Below are positions 3,349 through 38,009 of a stretch of 51,631 nucleotides of DNA, piece by piece. The first letter of the stretch is position 1. Each line of letters starts with the position of its first letter. Under the pieces are notes generated by a model. That model was not told where the DNA came from. It searched no databases and saw nothing but the letters and a program-made list of their open reading frames with translations. A program made the translations under genes and the position numbers. This stretch comes from Minisyncoccota bacterium (GTDB taxonomy: Bacteria > Patescibacteriota > Minisyncoccia > Phycocordibacterales > JAQTLZ01), in the NCBI GenBank assembly GCA_028710915.1, contig JAQTTF010000001.1, positions 1 through 51,631 on the forward strand, in the 5' to 3' direction.

Positions 3349-4554
3349 CTAGAAATAAAGGCGTTTGATAAGCGGATTAATTCGCGTAATTACCTCATTT
3401 TGAAAAGTATCCGCGTGATTGGCAAGCTCATAGACATCAATACACTCTTTTCCATCCTTTCCAATAAGCGTCACAACATCGCCAACATTTACTTGGGGAA
3501 TATCCGTACAATCGATAATGATCATATCCATCGAGACAAGCCCTATAATCTGCGCGCGCTTCCCGTTTAAAAGCACTTCAGCATTGTTGGACAAAGCACG
3601 CGGAAGCCCTTGCCAATATCCAACCGGACAAATTGCAATCTTTGCATTTGACGAAAGTTTATAAGTCAGTTCATAGCCGACAGATTCTCCTGCTCCAATT
3701 TCTTTTACTTCTGAGACAAGAGTCCTCCAAGAAAGTATCGGAGTGAGTTTTATTTTTTTCTCAAAAACTTCTCTTAGCTTATGAGACGGCCAAAGCCCAA
3801 AAAGACCGGAAGCAATGCGAACCATATCAAAATCCGCCTCTGGATATAAAAGAGCTCCCGCTGTTGCGCCAGCATGCGTAATGAGAGGAAATCCTGCTGT
3901 TTCAAAGCTTTTCTTCCATTCTAGAAATTGACTGATTTGACCTCTCGTATATTCAAGTGAAGACGGATCCTTCGCTTGCGCAAAGTGTGTGTACAGCCCT
4001 TCTACTTCTATGAAATCTTTAAATCTTTTTAATACTGAAAATAATTTTTCTTTCTGATCTCTAAGAAATCCCTGCCGATGCATTCCCGTATCAACTTCAA
4101 TATGAATTTTGATTTTCGCACCACGAAAATCATGTCGAAAGATGTCCAGCCCGGGGCGGACGAGATTTTCGACTATCTTCTTCGATAGTTTTTCTTTTGG
4201 GAGATTCTCAAAAAATGCAAAGCTTGAGACAGTGAGAGAAATATCTTTCTCTGCCGCTTCAGCGACAAGTTCCGGCAAAGTAAATCCAAGGACAAGCATA
4301 GGCAGAGCGATTCCCTCTCTTCGCAAACTAAATCCTTCAACAACAGAATCTACGCCGATCCAATCAGCGCCAAGTTTAGAAATCTCTTTGGAGAAGTCGA
4401 TGAGACTGTGGCCATAGGCGTTGGATTTCACCACTGCCATCATTTTGCAGGTCTTGGGAAGGATGCCTCGGAGCGAATCATAATTTTTCTTTATTGCTCC
4501 CGTATCTACTTCAATCCAAGTGCGAAGCCCAGAACGCATTTCTTTCGTAATCAT
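3349..4554 (-). CDS. alr: Alanine racemase
   Basis: Carries the PLP-lysine motif AVVKSNAYGHS and an alanine racemase C-terminal domain. The ORF extends to 4608, but the internal ATG at 4554 (MITKEM...) gives a normal N-terminus. Confidence 0.85.
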   Translation of the reverse strand: MITKEMRSGLRTWIEVDTGAIKKNYDSLRGILPKTCKMMAVVKSNAYGHSLIDFSKEISKLGADWIGVDSVVEGFSLRREGIALPMLVLGFTLPELVAEAAEKDISLTVSSFAFFENLPKEKLSKKIVENLVRPGLDIFRHDFRGAKIKIHIEVDTGMHRQGFLRDQKEKLFSVLKRFKDFIEVEGLYTHFAQAKDPSSLEYTRGQISQFLEWKKSFETAGFPLITHAGATAGALLYPEADFDMVRIASGLFGLWPSHKLREVFEKKIKLTPILSWRTLVSEVKEIGAGESVGYELTYKLSSNAKIAICPVGYWQGLPRALSNNAEVLLNGKRAQIIGLVSMDMIIIDCTDIPQVNVGDVVTLIGKDGKECIDVYELANHADTFQNEVITRINPLIKRLYF

Positions 4555-16178: not shown

Positions 16179-16210
16179 TATTATGTTTCTCTTTTTTTAT
16201 ATTCAACAGA

Positions 16211-16237
16211 AAACGCCCCACTTAAAGCAGGGCGTTT
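16211..16237 (-). terminator. Terminator downstream of the 16252-16491 gene
   Basis: AAACGCCC...GGGCGTTT stem, with a T-run on the minus strand. Confidence 0.6.
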
Positions 16238-16251
16238 CCAAAGAAAAAATA

Positions 16252-16491
16252 CTAGAAATTAAGACTTGCCTTAATGATATTTTTAATGACAATAGCCGCA
16301 GTCATAATGAAAAGTCCGATAAGACCCCACATAATATGCTTGGCACCGACACTTCTTGCTTCTTCATCGTCAGACTTCCAAACAAATATTACAACTCCGT
16401 AGACAAATATCACCACCGCAACACCAAACAATAGCGTGATGATAGGATTAAGAACAACCCTCTCTATATTGGCAATTATTGGTACTTGCAT
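16252..16491 (-). CDS. Small two-TM pilin-like protein (TrbC/VirB2-like topology), paralog 1
   Basis: 79 aa. Two hydrophobic helices are separated by the charged loop KSDDEEARSVG. Confidence 0.6.
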   Translation of the reverse strand: MQVPIIANIERVVLNPIITLLFGVAVVIFVYGVVIFVWKSDDEEARSVGAKHIMWGLIGLFIMTAAIVIKNIIKASLNF

Positions 16492-16508
16492 AGATAAATT
16501 TAATAAGG

Positions 16509-16532
16509 AAAAGAGCTCGCGAGAGCTCTTTT
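16509..16532 (-). terminator. Palindromic terminator between pilin-like paralogs
   Basis: AAAAGAGCTC-gcga-GAGCTCTTTT. Confidence 0.6.
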
Positions 16533-16542
16533 CGCTTCTAGA

Positions 16543-16875
16543 CTATCGAGGGAGAAGATTAGGAACGTTATTTGCCTGATTCAACTGGAGAGAGTCTCGA
16601 AGGAGGTTTACCAAGCCCCAGACAGACACCATGACGAAAATAGCGATAATACCGTAAATCATTGTATTCCTTCCAGCTTGTCGCTTTTCCTCATCCCCTC
16701 CTGCCAAGATATAGGTAAGAACTCCGTATAGAAAGAGTACAACCGCTGCAGAGATAAAGAGCGGTACGAGTCTGGTAAGGATGTTCTGAGCCCAGGTAAT
16801 GAGATTATCAACACCAGCCGCAAATGCGAGCATTGGCAGTGCCCAAGCTGACGCAACAATAAGAGTTTTTTTCAT
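16543..16875 (-). CDS. Two-TM pilin-like protein, paralog 2
   Basis: 110 aa. Signal peptide MKKTLIVASAWALPMLAFA. C-terminal module LFLYGVLTYILAGGDEEKRQAGRNTMIYGIIAIFVMVSVWGLVNLL. Confidence 0.65.
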   Translation of the reverse strand: MKKTLIVASAWALPMLAFAAGVDNLITWAQNILTRLVPLFISAAVVLFLYGVLTYILAGGDEEKRQAGRNTMIYGIIAIFVMVSVWGLVNLLRDSLQLNQANNVPNLLPR

Positions 16876-16999
16876 TTCTTAAAAAAATAACTTAATAATA
16901 AAGACCTTTTGATAAATAATACGTGCCTTAATGGTAACAAACCGCGGGAAATGAGCAAGAAAGATGTGTGGATATTAAATCTTCTCCAGACTAACATTA

Positions 17000-17521
17000 C
17001 TAAGGGGTAAGTTGCGGCAATATAGGACTCTTGCCCACAACACTTAGGCTAATAATGCCGACAAGCGCCCATAGTGTAGTAATAACTGCAAGGCCGACAA
17101 TACCATAGGTCATAAACCTGACTCCTTCTTTGCGTTTCTCTTCATCGCCCCCTGAATAAATATAGCGAAGCACCCCATACAGGAAGCCAACGACAGCGAG
17201 ACCAACAAGGAGTGGAATGAGTAGGCCCAAATAGCTGGTCAAACAAGCAACCAAAGATTTAAAATCGTTTATTGCGCCGCATGAACCACCGGCAGAAGTG
17301 TGTACGCTATATGCAGAATCGCTACAACTCTGAATTGCCGGCAAGTCTAGCCCAGCATTGAGAGTGCCCGGTGGACATATATAAGCATGCGCGACGAAAG
17401 GAGTAAAAAAGAAAGACGAAAGAACAAAACAAAACATAACCAAGGAAATGACACCTCGGGAATGGAGGATAAAATACTTTGTAACACGATTAAATCTTTG
17501 AGCTGCCGAACGTGTATGCAT
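17000..17521 (-). CDS. Pilin-like paralog 3 with a short Cys-containing ectodomain
   Basis: C-terminal module FLYGVLRYIYSGGDEEKRKEGVRFMTYGIVGLAVITTLWALVGII. Five Cys lie upstream of it. The true start may be the internal ATG at 17434 (MFCFVLSS...). Confidence 0.6.
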   Translation of the reverse strand: MHTRSAAQRFNRVTKYFILHSRGVISLVMFCFVLSSFFFTPFVAHAYICPPGTLNAGLDLPAIQSCSDSAYSVHTSAGGSCGAINDFKSLVACLTSYLGLLIPLLVGLAVVGFLYGVLRYIYSGGDEEKRKEGVRFMTYGIVGLAVITTLWALVGIISLSVVGKSPILPQLTP

Positions 17522-17538
17522 ATGAATAAAAATTATTT

Positions 17539-18441
17539 TTATAATTGATTAATAGTGTTTTGAATAATTGCAGAGAGCGCTGTTGCCCCCAAAAGCACGG
17601 CGGCACCGACAACCGTCCAAAGAAATGCTCTTTTCGCTGTTTCCAATTCCTCGCTGTTGCCCTGCGCTTTTACAAAAAGGAATCCAGAATAAATAATTGC
17701 AAGCACAATAATAATCGCTCCAATTTGTTCTGCGATCTTCAAAATCTTTGCAAAAAGCTGATAGAGATCACAGGTATTCCCAAGAGGATTTTTAAGTCCA
17801 CCAGAACTATCACACCCTTTTCCACTGTTTGGTCCTTGCTGAAGGAGACCTGCACTATTTGGTCCTTGCTGAAGCAAGCCTGGATCTGTTGTGTCATTCG
17901 CTGCAGGTGGTACCACATTCGTCGGAGCTGGAGTCGGAGCGGCCGCATTATTTATTGAAGAAAGAGGAGCGTAAGATCCTGAACTGCCGTTTCCGACCAA
18001 AATACCGCTGAGATCAAAATTGAAGAGAAATCCGGTAGTTGATGAATTGGGGTAATACGGCTTTAGCTTATTATTTATTGTAACAATATCCACAGAAGTA
18101 CACTGTCGGCAGGAGCCTCCGGCCACCCCAGAATTATTGATTGACTGAACGCACGCAGCATTTGTAGGAAAAGCATTCACTGCTTTTTTGTCTTTTCCTA
18201 TTGCACACCAGACAGTACAGGTACCGCAGATATTCCATGACGGGTCTCTCCCCTGCGTACAAGCAGGTCCTGAAGCAAAAACATGCACCACATCACTCGG
18301 ATCTTTCGAACACCATGTGGCCGCAAAAGCAGAGGTAGCTCCTAATGTAAAAAACAAAGCAAAAAGAAAAATTGCAAACAAAAAATGAGACTTGCGACCA
18401 AGCGTAGTTTTAATGTTCTTCTCTTTTTTTACAGTATTCAT
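17539..18441 (-). CDS. Pilin-like paralog 4 with a Cys-rich ectodomain of about 200 aa
   Basis: C-terminal module IIYSGFLFVKAQGNSEELETAKRAFLWTVVGAAVLLGATAL. The N-terminal region has 11 Cys. The ATG at 18441 (MNTVKKEK...) avoids overlap with the upstream gene. The ORF is open to 18498. Confidence 0.6.
   Translation of the reverse strand: MNTVKKEKNIKTTLGRKSHFLFAIFLFALFFTLGATSAFAATWCSKDPSDVVHVFASGPACTQGRDPSWNICGTCTVWCAIGKDKKAVNAFPTNAACVQSINNSGVAGGSCRQCTSVDIVTINNKLKPYYPNSSTTGFLFNFDLSGILVGNGSSGSYAPLSSINNAAAPTPAPTNVVPPAANDTTDPGLLQQGPNSAGLLQQGPNSGKGCDSSGGLKNPLGNTCDLYQLFAKILKIAEQIGAIIIVLAIIYSGFLFVKAQGNSEELETAKRAFLWTVVGAAVLLGATALSAIIQNTINQL
17828..17887 (-). repeat. Two tandem 30-nt units encoding GLLQQGPNS twice
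   Basis: TTTGGTCCTTGCTGAAG is exact at 17828 and at 17858. Confidence 0.8.
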
Positions 18442-18457
18442 TTTTTCTTTTTTAAGA

Positions 18458-19594
18458 TTATCCAAAAATACCTTTGAAAAACTCCGGATCTGCCACAAGA
18501 CCTTTAATGATCGTATTCACCAGAAGCCACGCGCAAAGCATAATAATAATTCCAATGAGAGCGCTCCAAAAGATTTGATGAGCCTCTTCTATTTTCCCAG
18601 GATTCCCGCCTGCGGTCAAATAGAGAAAACCGGCAAAAAAGAAAGCAACGGCGGCAATCGAGACAGCGACTTTAAGAAGAAAGCCGATGATATTGCCGAT
18701 AAGATTAAGAAATTGCTGGAAACCACAATTGCTATAGGCGGTTTGATTTGTAGCATCAATAGTAACAGTGCCGTCACAGGAAACCAGTCCGCTCGGGTTT
18801 GTGCTGGAAGTCGGATTTCCATTATTGCCATTTCCTCCGCCCTTAGGCTGAGTTGGGGATTGAGGGTTAGTGGGTGTTGGCGATGGATTTGCTGAGGAGT
18901 TACAAGCAGTATCGGAAAACCTGCAAGCTCCTCCGGGAACATTATTGGTTTGAATATAAGACTGACATACCTGCATAAATGAACTCTTTTCATCAACAGT
19001 AGAATATTTCGATTCTTTAAAAGGTTTCCCATTCGAATCCATACAGACATATCCAGAAACAGGAGCTGGAGTGGGTGTTGGAGTTGGAGCAACACAATCA
19101 GTATCAGAGAGTGTGCAAGTACCTCCGGATATATTATTAGTCTGAATATATGTTTGACACTGTTGCATGCCAGTATTTTTCTCCTGCTCACTTGCATAAT
19201 GCAATTTCTTCAGAAGAGTTGTACTGGAGTTCATACAAATCCAACCCGACACAGGTACAGGAGTTGGAGTGGGAGTTGGTGTGGGTGTGGGAGGAATAGT
19301 AGCAGAACAGCTGCATTTCCATTGTGCTACTCCCCTTTCTTGAGCAACCCCCGGAACATCGTTACTACAAGCTTCTCCCTGATCGAAATCTTGCCCAACC
19401 GTATGAAATATATATGTCTTCGCAACAACAGTGGAACCATCACAAGTAAGACTCCAGTAGCCTTCTTCTGGCGTGTTCGGATCCGTAGTAGCTTTCACTC
19501 CCGTCGTCGGTAAAAAATAGAAAGATACTCCCAAGGCTATTGCAATAGCAATAATATAGAAAGGAAACCTTTTTGAAGATAAAAAATTGAACAT
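18458..19594 (-). CDS. Pilin-like paralog 5 with a large Cys-rich, TP-linker modular ectodomain
   Basis: 378 aa. C-terminal module FFFAGFLYLTAGGNPGKIEEAHQIFWSALIGIIIMLCAWLLVN. Two ectodomain modules of about 63 aa are joined by (TP)n linkers. Confidence 0.7.
   Translation of the reverse strand: MFNFLSSKRFPFYIIAIAIALGVSFYFLPTTGVKATTDPNTPEEGYWSLTCDGSTVVAKTYIFHTVGQDFDQGEACSNDVPGVAQERGVAQWKCSCSATIPPTPTPTPTPTPVPVSGWICMNSSTTLLKKLHYASEQEKNTGMQQCQTYIQTNNISGGTCTLSDTDCVAPTPTPTPAPVSGYVCMDSNGKPFKESKYSTVDEKSSFMQVCQSYIQTNNVPGGACRFSDTACNSSANPSPTPTNPQSPTQPKGGGNGNNGNPTSSTNPSGLVSCDGTVTIDATNQTAYSNCGFQQFLNLIGNIIGFLLKVAVSIAAVAFFFAGFLYLTAGGNPGKIEEAHQIFWSALIGIIIMLCAWLLVNTIIKGLVADPEFFKGIFG
18875..19255 (-). repeat. 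Tandem duplication of a Cys module of about 63 aa inside paralog 5
   Basis: PVSGWICMNSS..QQCQTYIQTNNISGGTCTLSDTDC aligns with PVSGYVCMDSN..MQVCQSYIQTNNVPGGACRFSDTAC. Confidence 0.8.
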
Positions 19595-19603
19595 TATCTA
19601 AAA

Positions 19604-20878
19604 TTATTGGCTAAATAACTGCTGGATCTGCTGGCTTGCTTGGCCGATCGCATCGGCATACTTTTCCTGTCCCGAAGAAACTGTTTCAATCATGCGCTGG
19701 AAAATACTCTGTGTTTCGGTAGGATTTGGATCAAACCAAGCTCGAGAACGCAACGCTGAAGAATAAAGAACGGGGCTAAGTGGATCGGAAGGCGGTGTTG
19801 AGAGAAGATCAAGACGAACTGGAGGCAAACCGCTCACTTGTGAGAAACTCCTTATGACATCCTGTGAAGTAAGGTACGTAATCATAGAAAGCGCGCTCGT
19901 ATAATTCGGCGACGTTTTCAAAATTGCCAACCCAAACATCCTGGCAAAGGTCATTTTTGTTGAAGCATCTTTAGGCTGGGGCATTTCTGCCATATCGAGA
20001 TTTAGGTTGGGATTCTTTGCCCGCAGCGCTGAAAGTTCTGAAGCAAAGCCGAAATAAAGAGCGAGCTTCCCGGATGCAAAATAATCAAAAGAAGCAGGAA
20101 GCGAACGATTCCATGTGTATGCCTCGTTAGTCGGATTCCCAAACTGGCTATAGAAACGCAAGGCAGTATCTGCTGAATTCCCCGATGAATCCATGACTGA
20201 AGACCAGCCTATTTGAGTCTGTTGTGTAATTGGGTTCCCCGACTGAATAAGAAGAGTCGCAAGAATTTCTTTTGCATTGGAAACATTTCTAAATTCTCCC
20301 ATTGCCACAGCGCTTTGCAAAATTACAGACTCATTATTTTTCTGCGTGAGTGTCTTTGTAAATGTGATAAAATCGCTCCAATTTTTCGGCGGCACTGCCA
20401 CAGAAGCATTCGTCAGAAGGTCGCGATTCCAATACATAACCATGGGATCAATAACAAAAGGCAAAGCAAGAATGCCATCAGTTGTTATGTACATATTTCC
20501 TTCTTGTACGAATGTGTCTTGAAAAGTTCTCTGAGAGAGCGTAGTGAATGGTATTTGAGCAATCTTTTCAGCATGTCGGTAAATTTTATCTTGCGCTAGA
20601 AGAAAGATGTCCGGCCCGTGTCCAGTTGCGATAGCTTCAGCAAGATCAGTATCGAATGTCGCCTCGTCTCTCTGAACATAGCTTACTTTCAGCTGATCAG
20701 GCTTGCCTTGATTTAAATTTGTAAGGAGTGCATCAAATGTGGTTTGCGGAATCGTGCCCCAGATTACAACAGGAGCGATTGCGCTCCCGTTCGGAGCTCG
20801 CACAATTGCGAATGTAAGCACGCCGACAATTGCGAAGAAAATAAGAATTCCAATAAAGACGATTTGAAAATTAGACAT
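19604..20878 (-). CDS. Membrane-anchored extracellular solute-binding protein (ABC family 1-like)
   Basis: 424 aa. N-terminal TM helix, then a periplasmic-binding-protein-like sequence (VVIWGTIP, MVMYWNRDLL). No permease or ATPase gene is adjacent. Confidence 0.55.
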   Translation of the reverse strand: MSNFQIVFIGILIFFAIVGVLTFAIVRAPNGSAIAPVVIWGTIPQTTFDALLTNLNQGKPDQLKVSYVQRDEATFDTDLAEAIATGHGPDIFLLAQDKIYRHAEKIAQIPFTTLSQRTFQDTFVQEGNMYITTDGILALPFVIDPMVMYWNRDLLTNASVAVPPKNWSDFITFTKTLTQKNNESVILQSAVAMGEFRNVSNAKEILATLLIQSGNPITQQTQIGWSSVMDSSGNSADTALRFYSQFGNPTNEAYTWNRSLPASFDYFASGKLALYFGFASELSALRAKNPNLNLDMAEMPQPKDASTKMTFARMFGLAILKTSPNYTSALSMITYLTSQDVIRSFSQVSGLPPVRLDLLSTPPSDPLSPVLYSSALRSRAWFDPNPTETQSIFQRMIETVSSGQEKYADAIGQASQQIQQLFSQ

Positions 20879-20880
20879 GC

Positions 20881-21408
20881 TTATTTTTTAAAGATAAAAC
20901 CATAATGATGGTCTCCTGCCCGAATCTGGGTCTGAAATATAAAACCCGACTTTTCAAAAAGGGCTCGCGCCTTAACTCCCGGGAAAACACTATCGAATGA
21001 AGGACCCATCCCTCCAAAAGAATCCGTCCAATCGATAACAAGCGCCCGCCCGCCCGGCTTTAATATCCTCTTCGCTTCAGTTACCACGGCTTCTTTTGGG
21101 CCAATCTGAAAAAGAATATTTGAAATGACAACAGCATCGACAGTATCTCCCCGCAAATGAGTGCCTCCCGGTTTTTCTACATCCGCCCAAATAATTTCGA
21201 TATTGGTAAAACCGCGTTTGTTCCCCTCATTTTTAATTTTTGAAAGAAGATCCTTTTGAACATCGATCGCATACACCTTCCCCGCCCCACCGACAGCTTT
21301 TGCGATTTCAAAAGCATAAAAACCGGTGCCTGCACCAAAATCGGCAACTTTTGCTCCAGATTGAAGTCCAAATTGCTCTATATTATGTTCTGGATCTGTA
21401 AAGGCCAT
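20881..21408 (-). CDS. Class I SAM-dependent methyltransferase
   Basis: Motif I is VADFGAGTGFYAFEIA, plus the acidic motif YAIDV. The ATG at 21408 (MAFTDPEHN) is preferred over 21450. Confidence 0.7.
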   Translation of the reverse strand: MAFTDPEHNIEQFGLQSGAKVADFGAGTGFYAFEIAKAVGGAGKVYAIDVQKDLLSKIKNEGNKRGFTNIEIIWADVEKPGGTHLRGDTVDAVVISNILFQIGPKEAVVTEAKRILKPGGRALVIDWTDSFGGMGPSFDSVFPGVKARALFEKSGFIFQTQIRAGDHHYGFIFKK

Positions 21409-21479
21409 AGAAATGAATCCTCTATAGTATACAACAAAACAACCCCGCATTTTCAGGGGGCTGTGGAGAAAATGAGCGA

Positions 21480-21971
21480 TTAACGCGTGACAGTTATTTT
21501 CTCTCCTAGTTCTGCATACGGAGCCGAAATAGTAATTCGTGTCGTGGTTGCGTCCTTCTGGATAACATATCCGCTTTCGTAATCTGAAGCCGTATTAAAA
21601 TATGCCCTGTTAGAATCTGGATCAATCGGGAGTGAAGGAAGATACGTCGGAACGAGACAAGCATTGATATCAAATGCGTCTTCAGCCGATGTGCTTGAAG
21701 CTATCGTCATTGGAGTACTCGTGGAAATATTTTGAGAACACACTGTATCTCCTGCAAGTCGAAATACTCCTTTGTTGTCTGCAATTCTCTGGCCAACGGC
21801 ATTTAAAATCTCATTCACATTACTTTGTCGCTGTAGATTTCTTGCTTGAGCAAATTGCCGGGAAGGATTTATAGCGATAAGCACAATTCCAGCGAGAATT
21901 GCAATGATGCCGATGACGACGAGAATTTCTACCAAGGTAAAACCACTTGTGTTCGTTATTTTTCTTTTCAT
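21480..21971 (-). CDS. Type IV pilin (prepilin N-terminal cleavage/methylation domain)
   Basis: N-terminus is MKRKITNTSGFTLVEILVVIGIIAILAGIVLIAI. 163 aa. Confidence 0.85.
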   Translation of the reverse strand: MKRKITNTSGFTLVEILVVIGIIAILAGIVLIAINPSRQFAQARNLQRQSNVNEILNAVGQRIADNKGVFRLAGDTVCSQNISTSTPMTIASSTSAEDAFDINACLVPTYLPSLPIDPDSNRAYFNTASDYESGYVIQKDATTTRITISAPYAELGEKITVTR

Positions 21972-22475: not shown

Positions 22476-22935
22476 AATATGTAGTTGTTATAAAGCGATT
22501 TCCTATTTGCAAAACAACAAGAACCCCAGCTGGACTGCCAGACATTACAGGAGGAATATAGGAAAAAGAAATGGAATCTATTTTTACCAATTCATCATTA
22601 AGCGGAACTGGTTTCATATTTCCCCGAGAAAACACAAGAAGACCATCCTGCAAATGTAAGGTCAGAGGATTTTGCGAAGAATTATATTTACGGACAGAAA
22701 GGGTGCTCGAGGCAAGAGATGTCGAAGGAGTATTGATATTAGAAACACCGATGAGTATCCAGTCGATCTTTCGAGAAAGGAAATTTAATTCCTCGTCTAC
22801 GGCAATGCTTTGACTTTGCTTTGAAGAAGATTCGATAAGATCATACGATACAGTAAGAACTCCCCCCAAAAGAAGTGATAAGAGAGCTATATATACTATG
22901 GTTTCGATTAGTGTAAATCCATTATTCTTTCTCAT
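22465..22935 (-). CDS. Minor pilin (prepilin-type N-terminus)
   Basis: MRKNNGFTLIETIVYIALLSLLLGGV. Confidence 0.75.
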   Translation of the reverse strand: MRKNNGFTLIETIVYIALLSLLLGGVLTVSYDLIESSSKQSQSIAVDEELNFLSRKIDWILIGVSNINTPSTSLASSTLSVRKYNSSQNPLTLHLQDGLLVFSRGNMKPVPLNDELVKIDSISFSYIPPVMSGSPAGVLVVLQIGNRFITTTYYVR

Positions 22936-24416
22936 TGTGGTGAAAATATATGAAGGCCTTTCGATCCAACTTCATAAAGCTGATTGTTTTCAATATCCAT
23001 TCCGTTTACGCCAAAACTCGCCCAAGGAGAAATCGAAATCATTTGATGAGCGTTGCTATCATATTCAAATATCGGTTTTTTTGAATAGGTGCTTGCGATG
23101 AAAACAATATTTTCGAAAGCTCTGATGGCGCTAACATATACGCCATCGGTAGTGGAAAGATTGAGATTCGCATGTTCTATCTCGTGTATATTCTTCGGAT
23201 CTGTCACATCTAAAATAAAAAATTCTGATTCGGTTGTCTTGGAAAGGCCTTGTCCTTGCCTGCCAAGATAGAGCTTATTCCCGATAAGAAAAAGCGCCGT
23301 ACCATATTCTGTTCCTGGAGGATTGAAAAATCCTAAAGGCAGCGTATTTGTTTTGGCATCCATTTCCAAAGTCGGAGAAGTAACATCGAAAGCTTCGAGT
23401 TCTGGCATTGAGGCATCTGTACTGGAAAGCGCCAAATAACAAATAGTCTTCTCCACGCCATCTATGAACTGATTTGAAACAGCTATCGCATTCACACTAT
23501 GCCAGACTTTCAAATTCCCGATCTCAACTGGATTGGCGGGATCTGAAACATCAAAAATATGCAATTCTGCGGAATGAGAAGAAGGAGAATAATCTGTGCC
23601 AATATAGACTTTTCCATCAAAATAAAAAATACTTTGGCCAGGTTTATTGCTTCCTAAAAGCGTACAGGCCTGATCGCAGGAAATAAGTTTGAGGTTCTCC
23701 GGATCTCCAATATCTATTACTTGGAGTTGATCGGTACTCGAAGCATTCCCAACATACGCATAATTCTGAGCAACATCCAAAGCTTGAAATCCGTTTCCAG
23801 CAATGAGGGAAGAAAAGTTAGAATTTTTTGTATTGTAAGCGAAAAAATTTGCCGTTGTAGATCCAGTCGAGGCGGTCATGTAAGCAATTCCATTTTTCAT
23901 ATCAAGCCCAGTGATTGCACTCGGAAGATTTGAGACCGCAGACGTTTCAGTAATTTTCGACCAATCTTTCGCCGCGGACATCTCGCCTCCGCAATCATTT
24001 CCTAATTGCGAAAGCACAGAAGGGCTTCCGAAGAAACTGGCAAAAGTTATGCCTTGCGGGCGAGAATCGGCTTGCCAGGAAATCGTTTCTGAAACTTTTT
24101 TCCTGCAAGGAGTAATACTTGAAACTGAAATATCTTTTGAATAAAGGCCGCTGTATGGGTCTCCATCCTGCCCTATTATTGTCGAAGTTGCTGATACTAG
24201 GTTGTTAAAATCACTGAAAGATTCTCCTCGCAGGATTTCAAACTCTTCTCTCGCGACTGCAAGGCCGTGATTATTAAGATCAGAATCAAGCGCGAGAGAA
24301 GAGTTGGAAAAGCTCAAGAGAATGAGCGCGGCAAAAGTAATAGAAAGAATTGCGAGTGCAATAATAATCTCAAGAGTGCTTACTCCTCTATTCTTAATAG
24401 TTGATCCGTCCTTCAT
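22932..24416 (-). CDS. Large minor pilin with a C-terminal beta-propeller-like (LVIVD-type repeat) domain
   Basis: Pilin-like N-terminus is RGVSTLEIIIALAILSITFAALILL. Repeated units follow (LQVIDIGDPENLKLI, LHIFDVSDPANPVEI, LEAFDVTSP, FFILDVTDPKNIHEI). Confidence 0.65.
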   Translation of the reverse strand: MKDGSTIKNRGVSTLEIIIALAILSITFAALILLSFSNSSLALDSDLNNHGLAVAREEFEILRGESFSDFNNLVSATSTIIGQDGDPYSGLYSKDISVSSITPCRKKVSETISWQADSRPQGITFASFFGSPSVLSQLGNDCGGEMSAAKDWSKITETSAVSNLPSAITGLDMKNGIAYMTASTGSTTANFFAYNTKNSNFSSLIAGNGFQALDVAQNYAYVGNASSTDQLQVIDIGDPENLKLISCDQACTLLGSNKPGQSIFYFDGKVYIGTDYSPSSHSAELHIFDVSDPANPVEIGNLKVWHSVNAIAVSNQFIDGVEKTICYLALSSTDASMPELEAFDVTSPTLEMDAKTNTLPLGFFNPPGTEYGTALFLIGNKLYLGRQGQGLSKTTESEFFILDVTDPKNIHEIEHANLNLSTTDGVYVSAIRAFENIVFIASTYSKKPIFEYDSNAHQMISISPWASFGVNGMDIENNQLYEVGSKGLHIFSPQ

Positions 24417-37115: not shown

Positions 37116-38009
37116 TTGCCTCCACAAACATCAAGCAAACTTTCGACCCCAGTCGCAATCATCATCGCGGGAGTTATTATCGCCGGAGCGATTCTTTTGG
37201 TCGCAAGCGGCAAGATCAGTAACAATGCTCAACCCGGAGTAATTACGCAAGATCATAATGAAAATATAGCGCCGGTTACATCTGCCGATCATATCAAAGG
37301 AAGCCCTGATGCGCCTATTGTAATGGTAGAATTTTCAGATCTTGAATGTCCATTCTGCAAAATCTTTCATCAGACACTCGAAGGACTTGTAACAACCTAT
37401 AGCGGGAAAGTGGCTTGGGTCTACCGACATTTCCCTCTCGACCGGCATCCAAAAGCGCCAGCTGAAGCACAAGCGAGCGAATGTGCAGCGGAGCTCGGAG
37501 GAAATGATGGCTTTTGGAAATTCATAACTCAAGTATATGCAGTCACTCCTTCAAACAACGGAATGGATGATGGAGTTTACAATACTCCGGAACCTGTGCC
37601 AAAGGATTCAACTGGTACTCCATACTACACAGAAAAGAAACCAAAAAGCGCAACAGATGCTGGTGTACTCTCGCTGACCGCAGTCAATATCGGACTCGAC
37701 AAAGCGAAATTCGAAGCCTGTCTTGCAAGTGGAAAATACAAGCAGAAAGTGACAGATCAGTTGAATGATGGAGTACAAGCTGGCGGAAATGGAACCCCGT
37801 ACACAATTATGGTTCTCAAAAACAAAATTGGAGATGTTGCAAAGAAATATATTACTGATACCAATGCTACGTTCTTGAAACAAATTAATACTCCGGGAAC
37901 ACCTGACCTTCTCTTCGTTACAAATGATGGAATGAGAATTGGAGTAAGTGGTGCGCAGGATCCGGCTGTCATGCAGAAGATTGTAGATTTGGTTTTAGCG
38001 GGCAAATAG
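37116..38009 (+). CDS. Membrane-anchored DsbA-family thiol:disulfide oxidoreductase
   Basis: TTG start, a TM anchor, and the CxxC motif ECPFCKIFH in a thioredoxin fold. Confidence 0.75.
   Translation: MPPQTSSKLSTPVAIIIAGVIIAGAILLVASGKISNNAQPGVITQDHNENIAPVTSADHIKGSPDAPIVMVEFSDLECPFCKIFHQTLEGLVTTYSGKVAWVYRHFPLDRHPKAPAEAQASECAAELGGNDGFWKFITQVYAVTPSNNGMDDGVYNTPEPVPKDSTGTPYYTEKKPKSATDAGVLSLTAVNIGLDKAKFEACLASGKYKQKVTDQLNDGVQAGGNGTPYTIMVLKNKIGDVAKKYITDTNATFLKQINTPGTPDLLFVTNDGMRIGVSGAQDPAVMQKIVDLVLAGK

Follow-up and report, generated by a model that had tools for sequence, protein, structure and literature searches.

What do five neighboring genes encode when they share one membrane-embedded end and differ in their N-terminal parts? 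This question is raised by an array at positions 16252–19594, on the minus strand, of a 51,631-nucleotide stretch of DNA from a Minisyncoccota bacterium (assembly GCA_028710915.1, contig JAQTTF010000001.1, positions 1 to 51,631 of the forward strand); we call this whole stretch, contig C12 of the source assembly, the window. A prediction made from the sequence alone (hereafter, the original prediction) described the five products as TrbC/VirB2-like pilins that form a diversified set of adhesins, contiguous with a type IV pilus operon. We find that the array is the distal part of an operon that runs from a methyltransferase, through a membrane-anchored orphan solute-binding protein (SBP), to pilins of types A, B, C (two copies here) and D. 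Judged by sequence and gene position, these are four old, position-specific subunit types and not a pool of fast-varying copies. We favor, at a probability of about 0.6, the reading that these genes supply the VirB2-like pilins of a monoderm-type type IV secretion system (T4SS) in this Patescibacterium; the pilins would assemble heteromerically, and the ATPase core of the system is encoded on another contig.

Five proteins end in one T4SS pilin module

The array comprises the following genes, given in the direction of transcription with their lengths in amino acids (aa) and their scores against the Pfam family PF18895 (T4SS_pilin).

18458–19594, minus strand: pilin type A, 378 aa, first gene after the SBP; PF18895 31.1 bits, residues 297–362
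17539–18441, minus strand: pilin type B, 300 aa from ATG 18441, second position; PF18895 29.9 bits
17000–17521, minus strand: pilin type C copy 1 (C1), 173 aa; PF18895 31.3 bits
16543–16875, minus strand: pilin type C copy 2 (C2), 110 aa; PF18895 45.6 bits, the highest of the five
16252–16491, minus strand: pilin type D, 79 aa, last position; PF18895 26.4 bits, NF045849 27.2 bits

The five minus-strand open reading frames lie where the original prediction had put them, and each of the charged loops that it quoted is present. Read from a TTG at 18498, the type B frame (17539–18498) would encode 319 aa; the 300-aa product of the internal ATG 18441 is the more likely one and is used here, because the alignments with orthologues begin at that codon.

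Hydropathy windows show every protein to end in a pair of hydrophobic stretches with a short charged loop between them. PF18895 matches this module in all five, as expected from the single shared two-helix module that had been proposed; four of the matches exceed the gathering cut-off of 26.6 bits, and the 79-aa type D falls 0.2 bits short. A six-frame, genome-wide PF18895 search agrees with the protein-level matches, and five neighboring matches to one family are far beyond chance. The NCBIfam model NF045849 also matches all five proteins (14–27 bits, E 2e-6 to 0.02), below its cut-off of 40 bits. Together with sub-threshold matches to TrbC/VirB2 (PF04956), considered below, these profile searches place the array in the VirB2/TrbC-like T4SS pilin family common in genomes of the candidate phyla radiation (CPR), where the original prediction had placed it.

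The 110-aa type C2 has 7352 relatives by phmmer among 1.84 billion database representatives. Its AlphaFold2 (AF2) model, built from a 76-sequence alignment, has a mean confidence (pLDDT) of 88 and consists of a signal helix and two long helices (residues 22–58 and 62–95). A sequence-profile search of the PDB with this protein returned the pKM101 pilin TraM (8cw4) as the top match (E 0.0022), with only the signal peptide and helix 1 aligned; phmmer against the PDB gave nothing meaningful. An AF2 model of type B from 6 sequences reached a pLDDT of only 44 and was unfit for a fold search.

Upstream of the module the proteins diverge. Signal-peptide-like N-terminal segments are found in four of the five, type D having none, and the number of Cys residues falls from 15 in type A to 10, 5, 0 and 0 in types B, C1, C2 and D. 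With the (TP)n and AP/TP linkers readable in the translations, this confirms the range from no N-terminal part to Cys-rich ectodomains noted earlier. In type A, the signal peptide precedes a Cys-rich ectodomain built of repeats with (TP)n linkers; next comes a Cys loop (VSCDG...NC), which is followed by the two-helix T4SS_pilin module. In type B the signal peptide is followed by a conserved domain of ~100 aa with eight invariant Cys, a variable linker, an NPLG motif and the pilin module, and in C1 by a Cys-containing segment of ~60 aa and the module. Type C2 is the canonical form, a signal peptide and a two-helix hairpin with nothing else, and type D is a short N-terminal tail plus the hairpin.

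Small proteins with two transmembrane helices could in principle be holins or otherwise perturb membranes, and one array protein does give a weak Phage_holin_2 match (13.6 bits, E 0.079). That score is negligible beside the cut-off of 32, a PHROGs search of the array proteins gave no match at E≤0.01, no lysin or phage genes lie nearby, and the operon is a core one, class-wide and single-copy. A holin-like role is effectively excluded, and the pilin assignment survives the comparison.

Many relatives of the 110-aa pilin are single chains with 2, 3 or 7 tandem T4SS_pilin modules and no internal stops. Database proteins of this polyprotein-like kind include P0031, P0032, P0038 and P0159, and another is encoded at 3544–4320 of locus L034.

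The array is a fixed-order set of four subunit types

We compared 17 arrays and assigned types from a tree of their 99 modules. Type D is the most sharply defined: its clade (SH-aLRT branch support 96) contains exactly one member from each of the 17 genomes, and these proteins, of about 80–95 aa and without a signal peptide, are encoded last in the array in 16 genomes and next to last in one. Types A and B likewise cluster by position, type A (first position; signal peptide and VPCDG...C loop) with moderate support and type B (second position; NPLK motif, FLFVKAQGN-EELE) with good support. The clade that contains the window's type B protein is made up of second-position genes and spans 13 genomes; the type A protein of the window belongs to one of first-position genes. 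Type C occupies the middle positions, lies nearest to the Pfam consensus and is present in 1–4 copies through lineage-specific duplication; the window genes 17000–17521 and 16543–16875 both belong to it.

Conservation follows these types. Between species, the C-terminal 85 aa of orthologues are 69–95% identical, as against 20–47% between paralogues within a genome. The 110-aa type C2 is 94% and 85% identical to its two same-genus orthologues, and the translation factor IF-2 is also 94% identical between the source genome and the congener G001, equal to the pilin's identity to its nearer orthologue.

The pilin genes close an operon conserved across the class

The remaining elements of the operon are these.

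20881–21408, minus strand: class I S-adenosylmethionine-dependent methyltransferase, 175 aa, Methyltransf_31 66.6 bits; 2 nucleotides (nt) upstream of the SBP gene, first gene of the operon
19604–20878, minus strand: membrane-anchored orphan SBP (SBP_bac_8/SBP_bac_1, 85.5 and 52.9 bits in Pfam), 9 nt upstream of pilin A
21433–21458, minus strand: terminator-like hairpin and T tract from the pattern scan, fold energy −11.3 kcal/mol; likely upstream operon boundary
16510–16531, minus strand: perfect hairpin AAAGAGCTC-tcgc-GAGCTCTTT followed by TTCCTTATT, between pilins C2 and D, fold energy −18.5 kcal/mol
16205–16237, minus strand: intrinsic-terminator-like hairpin and T tract after the last pilin gene, fold energy −20.9 kcal/mol; putative operon end

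The methyltransferase gene is separated from the SBP gene by 2 nt and the SBP gene from pilin A by 9 nt; the gaps that follow, A/B, B/C1, C1/C2 and C2/D, measure 16, 17, 124 and 51 nt, respectively. The hairpin at 21433–21458 sits between the last type IV pilin gene (21480–21971) and the methyltransferase, where it likely marks the upstream limit of the operon; from its sequence, the hairpin at 16205–16237 would mark the other. The one at 16510–16531, after the candidate major pilin, may act as an attenuator or partial terminator. Across the window, the counts returned by the promoter and terminator pattern scan were close to shuffle expectation, and the hairpins used here are only those checked individually by folding.

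The two partner genes, which the original prediction had left out, are adjacent to the pilins and are kept across the order and class. We searched an order sample of 30 relatives from 29 families (counts out of 31 include the source genome) and a class sample of 80 genomes plus the source genome (81 in all). PF18895 matches occur in 29 of the 30 order relatives, mostly as arrays of 3–8, and an SBP orthologue is present as a single copy in 29 of the 30. In essentially every order genome that could be assessed, this gene immediately precedes the array and is read in the same direction. The methyltransferase orthologue is in turn directly upstream of the SBP in ~27 of the 29 order relatives with a match, and also in a genome, G045, to which we return below. 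Class-wide, the SBP is found in 75 of 81 genomes, and at least ~47 have a strong pilin match no more than ~3 kb downstream of it on the same strand. We call the SBP an orphan because BPD_transp_1 permeases, the usual partners of this SBP type, are mostly missing: they score above the cut-off in only 7 of the 31 order-sample genomes and are never adjacent to the SBP. A literature search found no published link of the SBP or the methyltransferase to VirB2-like pilin arrays. Close relatives of the source genome are labeled Candidatus Paceibacterota.

A T4SS core is encoded elsewhere in the genome

No VirB4 or VirD4 gene lies within the window, as the original prediction had observed; the genome (823 kb in 87 contigs, 82% complete, 5.4% contamination) does encode such machinery. 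Contig C82 carries a VirB4-like ATPase (P-loop_TraG, 92 bits; also AAA_10, DUF87 and TraC), a PrgI/VirB3-like protein (44 bits) and a polytopic 1252-aa protein, and the T4SS core on this contig probably includes VirB6. The Pfam models TrbL/VirB6 and CagE/VirB4 had no match in the source genome. VirD4-like genes are located on contigs C77 and C56 (36.7 and 32.5 bits). A sixth pilin-like gene, encoding 263 aa, lies ~2 kb from virB4 (C82:3426–4217, locus L007), with its module in mid-protein and a C-terminal extension. Contig C84 (3.9 kb) repeats one end of C82 in a diverged, near-duplicate form, and on it are a pilin-like gene and genes for a 420-aa protein, Jag, YidC and RnpA; the duplication probably reflects strain heterogeneity or contamination in this metagenome-assembled genome.

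Within the order sample, PF18895 and VirB4 are each found in the identical 30 of 31 genomes, and VirB4 is present in 78 of the 81 class-sample genomes. We considered the order genome without a pilin match (G008) as a case of joint loss of pilins and VirB4 and rejected it, as its SBP is at a contig start and the array has been cut off; genome G042, with no VirB4 match, is likewise uninformative as an absence, having a long pilin match at a contig edge. The strongest support found here for assigning the operon to the T4SS is its layout in G045, where a single co-directional cluster contains the methyltransferase, the SBP, a pilin, a two-module pilin, PrgI, a 241-aa protein and VirB4. A few kb downstream of virB4 in G045 (L034, 9478–10566) there is also a gene for a G5 + DUF348 + DPBB protein resembling the lytic transglycosylase RpfB, a possible VirB1 analogue for the T4SS.

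Several observations count against a T4SS pilin set. PF04956 stays below its 27.9-bit cut-off, its best score being that of type B (22.8 bits, E 1.1e-4), and the 110-aa type C2 reaches only 14.9 bits. A Foldseek search of the 110-aa AF2 model against the PDB returned generic helical hairpins and nothing at E≤0.001, since so simple a fold cannot discriminate. Here and in most relatives, virB4 is found either on a different contig from the array or at a distance of tens of kb, as in two single-contig genomes of the class, where 82 and 89 kb lie between them. The co-occurrence of VirB4, SBP and pilins discriminates little, since all three are near-universal in the class. At least 16 of 30 relatives also have a long pilin-like gene near virB4 that is separate from the array, so that two distinct pilin loci are kept; because the virB4 locus has a long pilin-like gene of its own, the array could serve another purpose. 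A domain of 200–280 aa on every subunit would crowd a filament. Finally, no pilus has been observed in any Patescibacterial T4SS, and monoderm T4SSs are generally without pili (PMC12102498, PMC12857230).

Some of these points feed the main rival, in which the five hairpin proteins join the SBP in a T4SS-independent membrane or surface complex of fixed stoichiometry, for example for ligand capture or uptake, and resemble pilins through remote ancestry only. The SBP is adjacent to the array in nearly all genomes, a much tighter linkage than that between array and VirB4, which are usually distant; it has no cognate ABC permease in most genomes; and the pilin-like gene at the VirB4 locus and the polypeptides of 2–7 fused modules fit this account as well. 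Against such a complex stand the direct continuation of the G045 operon into PrgI-VirB4 and the family-level similarity to conjugative pilins. It also sits poorly with Southlakia epibionticum ML1, whose T4SS cluster includes an essential series of pilin genes (Wang et al. 2023; PMC10633639), a finding repeated in a 2025 review (PMC12857230). We therefore regard the independent complex as unlikely, if the most serious competitor.

An idea that would join the SBP and the T4SS is that the operon acts as a substrate-capture front end, in which the tethered orphan SBP passes a host-derived molecule to a four-type pilin conduit. The apparatus would then be an importer feeding auxotrophic epibionts, not a machine for conjugation or effector export, and selection of the host surface would fall to the genus-specific ectodomains of types A and B. 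Reviews have speculated on the pilus as a conduit (PMC12857230); we consider this specific scheme speculative and rather improbable.

N-terminal domains change on a conserved anchor

Among the 17 arrays compared, large Cys-rich ectodomains on types A and B are confined to the genus of the source genome; outside it both types measure 81–160 aa, and type B elsewhere in the order 81–148 aa. Two congeners provide the closest comparison. A contig of GCA_028711065.1 (locus L017), which probably belongs to genome G001, carries type IV pilus genes, the methyltransferase, the SBP, pilins of 292, 388, 105, 110 and 78 aa, other genes, RbfA and IF-2. The same gene order is found in G002, with pilins of 152, 380, 104, 113 and 76 aa.

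The type A orthologues have only the last ~104 aa in common (64% identity). Their ectodomains are not alike: that of the source genome has three Cys-rich repeats and TP linkers, the 292-aa protein of G001 has three different two-Cys repeats, and the 152-aa protein of G002 has no ectodomain. Database relatives P0002 and P0004 carry unrelated ectodomains. As judged from these alignments, the type A ectodomain is exchanged between species. Five type B orthologues, 55–69% identical, keep the ~100-aa eight-Cys domain and vary in the middle. The C1 module is 85–87% identical to those of its orthologues, which are 104–105 aa long and lack the N-terminal extension; the 68-aa extension of this third gene is found in the source genome only. 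Ectodomain turnover, for which the original prediction had suggested comparative genomics as a check, is thus seen in types A and C1, partially in type B, and not in C2 or D.

This turnover would suit the view of the five genes as redundant, fast-diversifying adhesins, membrane-anchored or filament-borne, whose paralogues supply variation as proposed for the VirB2 proteins of Bartonella and Anaplasma. Three species of one genus have wholly different type A ectodomains, as do other database relatives, and paralogue identity is low. Redundancy is hard to reconcile, however, with a positional orthologue of each paralogue across 17 genomes of different families, with modules conserved at up to 94–95% identity, with the lack of an ectodomain in two of the five proteins, or with the short types A and B found outside this genus. 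We consider this reading unlikely, and less likely than the independent complex. Of the adhesin proposal in the original prediction, the part concerning ectodomains that differ and turn over holds; the picture of a diversified set does not, the types being old and position-specific with modules conserved at 69–95%.

A small Cys module common to all ectodomains (W-x-x-x-D...GP[YF]...C...C) was considered and rejected: leave-out hidden Markov models (HMMs) and hhalign failed to join the three module types, and a combined HMM was discarded as circular. The sole weak link joined the G001 repeat to the C-terminus of the pilin-like protein on C82 (E 0.016, hhalign). The DsbA-like gene reported earlier at 37116–38009 is present, and its product has an N-terminal transmembrane anchor and a CPFC active-site motif. 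The predicted ectodomain disulfides fit an extracytoplasmic location, and action of this anchored DsbA-like protein on the Cys-rich domains is plausible. No VKOR that could partner it was found in the 82%-complete genome; DsbB was not searched for.

A model for the pilin set

Under the favored reading of a heteromeric T4SS pilin set, the signal peptides suggest that each protein inserts as a helical hairpin with its N- and C-termini outside and its charged loop inside. The 110-aa type C would be the bulk subunit: type C is the candidate because it is the most conserved, most canonical and only multi-copy type, and because a hairpin follows the 110-aa copy. The remaining types, A, B and D, would then serve at low copy as specialized minor subunits for starting, capping or anchoring the assembly. 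The outward-facing N-termini of types A and B in this genus, and of C1 in the source genome, would have acquired disulfide-rich domains carried on flexible Pro/Thr linkers; there the domains should be surface-exposed, because cleavage of the signal peptide puts the N-terminus outside. Displayed on a filament or on the cell surface, these domains may serve as contact or recognition modules, and the exchange of type A domains between sister species would fit adaptation to different host surfaces. The F pilin is acetylated by TraX; by analogy, the methyltransferase could modify the pilins.

Comparison with known pilin systems

The VirB2-like array itself is of a kind already known. Using PF18895 and PF04956, Quinonero-Coronel et al. 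(2025) screened 3,035 Patescibacteria genomes, found 441 arrays of 2–11 VirB2-like pilin genes with a mean pilin identity of 25% within arrays, and likened them to the VirB2 paralogues of Bartonella and Anaplasma (PMC12102498). Such arrays are tandem PF18895/PF04956-type genes in monoderm CPR genomes with a VirB4/PrgI/VirB6-type T4SS, and here five such genes in tandem occur in a genome with a VirB4-like protein (P-loop_TraG, 92 bits, C82). Low paralogue identity is common to both, 20–47% here versus the published mean of 25%. Unlike the published and Southlakia arrays, the present one lies outside the virB4 cluster, follows a methyltransferase and an orphan SBP, and belongs to a class-wide operon. 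It also differs from the published arrays in comprising four old position-specific types, not variable copies, and in having three members with N-terminal Cys-rich ectodomains.

The array proteins resemble the diderm pilins VirB2, TrbC, TraA and TraM in having a signal peptide and, after it, a pair of long hydrophobic helices with a short loop between them. They differ in their monoderm host, in an acidic or mixed-charge loop (GGDEEKR), in the lack of VirB5, VirB7, VirB9 and VirB10 partners, and in that some members have large ectodomains or no signal peptide. Unlike the TrbC/VirB2 pilin genes, the array (C12) is not beside virB3/virB4 (VirB4/PrgI, C82), whereas that of G045 is. The Mbov_0395/MMCAP2_0565 protein of Mycoplasma integrative and conjugative elements (NF045849) is likewise a small protein with two transmembrane helices, from a FATA-type conjugation system of monoderms; its gene stands alone in the element, in contrast to the array described here. 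Sets of several old, non-interchangeable paralogues of the major subunit, in fixed order and some with extra domains, are familiar as the minor pilins FimU-PilVWX and GspHIJK. This resemblance to type IV pilus and type II secretion systems is an analogy only, as the fold family and the assembly machine are unrelated and the five proteins lack a prepilin peptidase motif.

New with respect to the literature searched are the class-wide methyltransferase-SBP-pilin operon, the four fixed types and the exchangeable, genus-level Cys-rich ectodomains on a conserved anchor; no description of the operon partnership or of the ectodomain fusions was found. The Patescibacterial T4SS and its pilin series are needed for epibiotic growth in the one system tested (PMC10633639). 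Across the class, the pilins now appear as a fixed four-type set joined to an orphan SBP and a methyltransferase, contiguous with PrgI-VirB4 in one lineage. A set in fixed order argues against reading the arrays as antigenic-variation-like diversity, contrary to the published suggestion. The natural series of 152, 292 and 378 aa on the same anchor gives a handle on the N-terminal domains of a VirB2-like pilin in host recognition, and the operon gives handles on the identity of the major subunit, the ligand of the SBP and pilin methylation.

The adjacent type IV pilus block

A type IV pilus block does lie beside the array, as originally described, with three N_methyl pilins, PilC and a PilB-like ATPase. 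The array is on the same strand, ~2 kb from the type IV pilin genes and ~5 kb from those for PilC and the ATPase, and the layout is shared with the two congeners, all of which could make it an accessory part of the type IV pilus machine. This is very unlikely. The adjacency recurs in those two congeners only and is not seen in other families of the order; the terminator-like hairpin at 21433–21458 separates the two blocks; and in both congeners a gene for an 809-aa SpaA/Ig-like surface protein is inserted between the type IV pilins and the methyltransferase (L017, 5610–8039; L019, 7121–9550). Moreover, the N_methyl prepilin motif (PF07963), present in the three neighboring type IV pilins, was not found by Pfam search in any of the five array proteins. 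We therefore reject a link between array and type IV pilus as a genus-specific adjacency: the contiguity had been correctly observed, and it ends at a probable operon boundary.

In the source genome itself no gene lies between the type IV pilins and the methyltransferase (window 21408–21480). Within the type IV pilus block, positions 22932–24416 encode a 494-aa protein with matches to LVIVD repeats only, whose congener orthologue has 478 aa.

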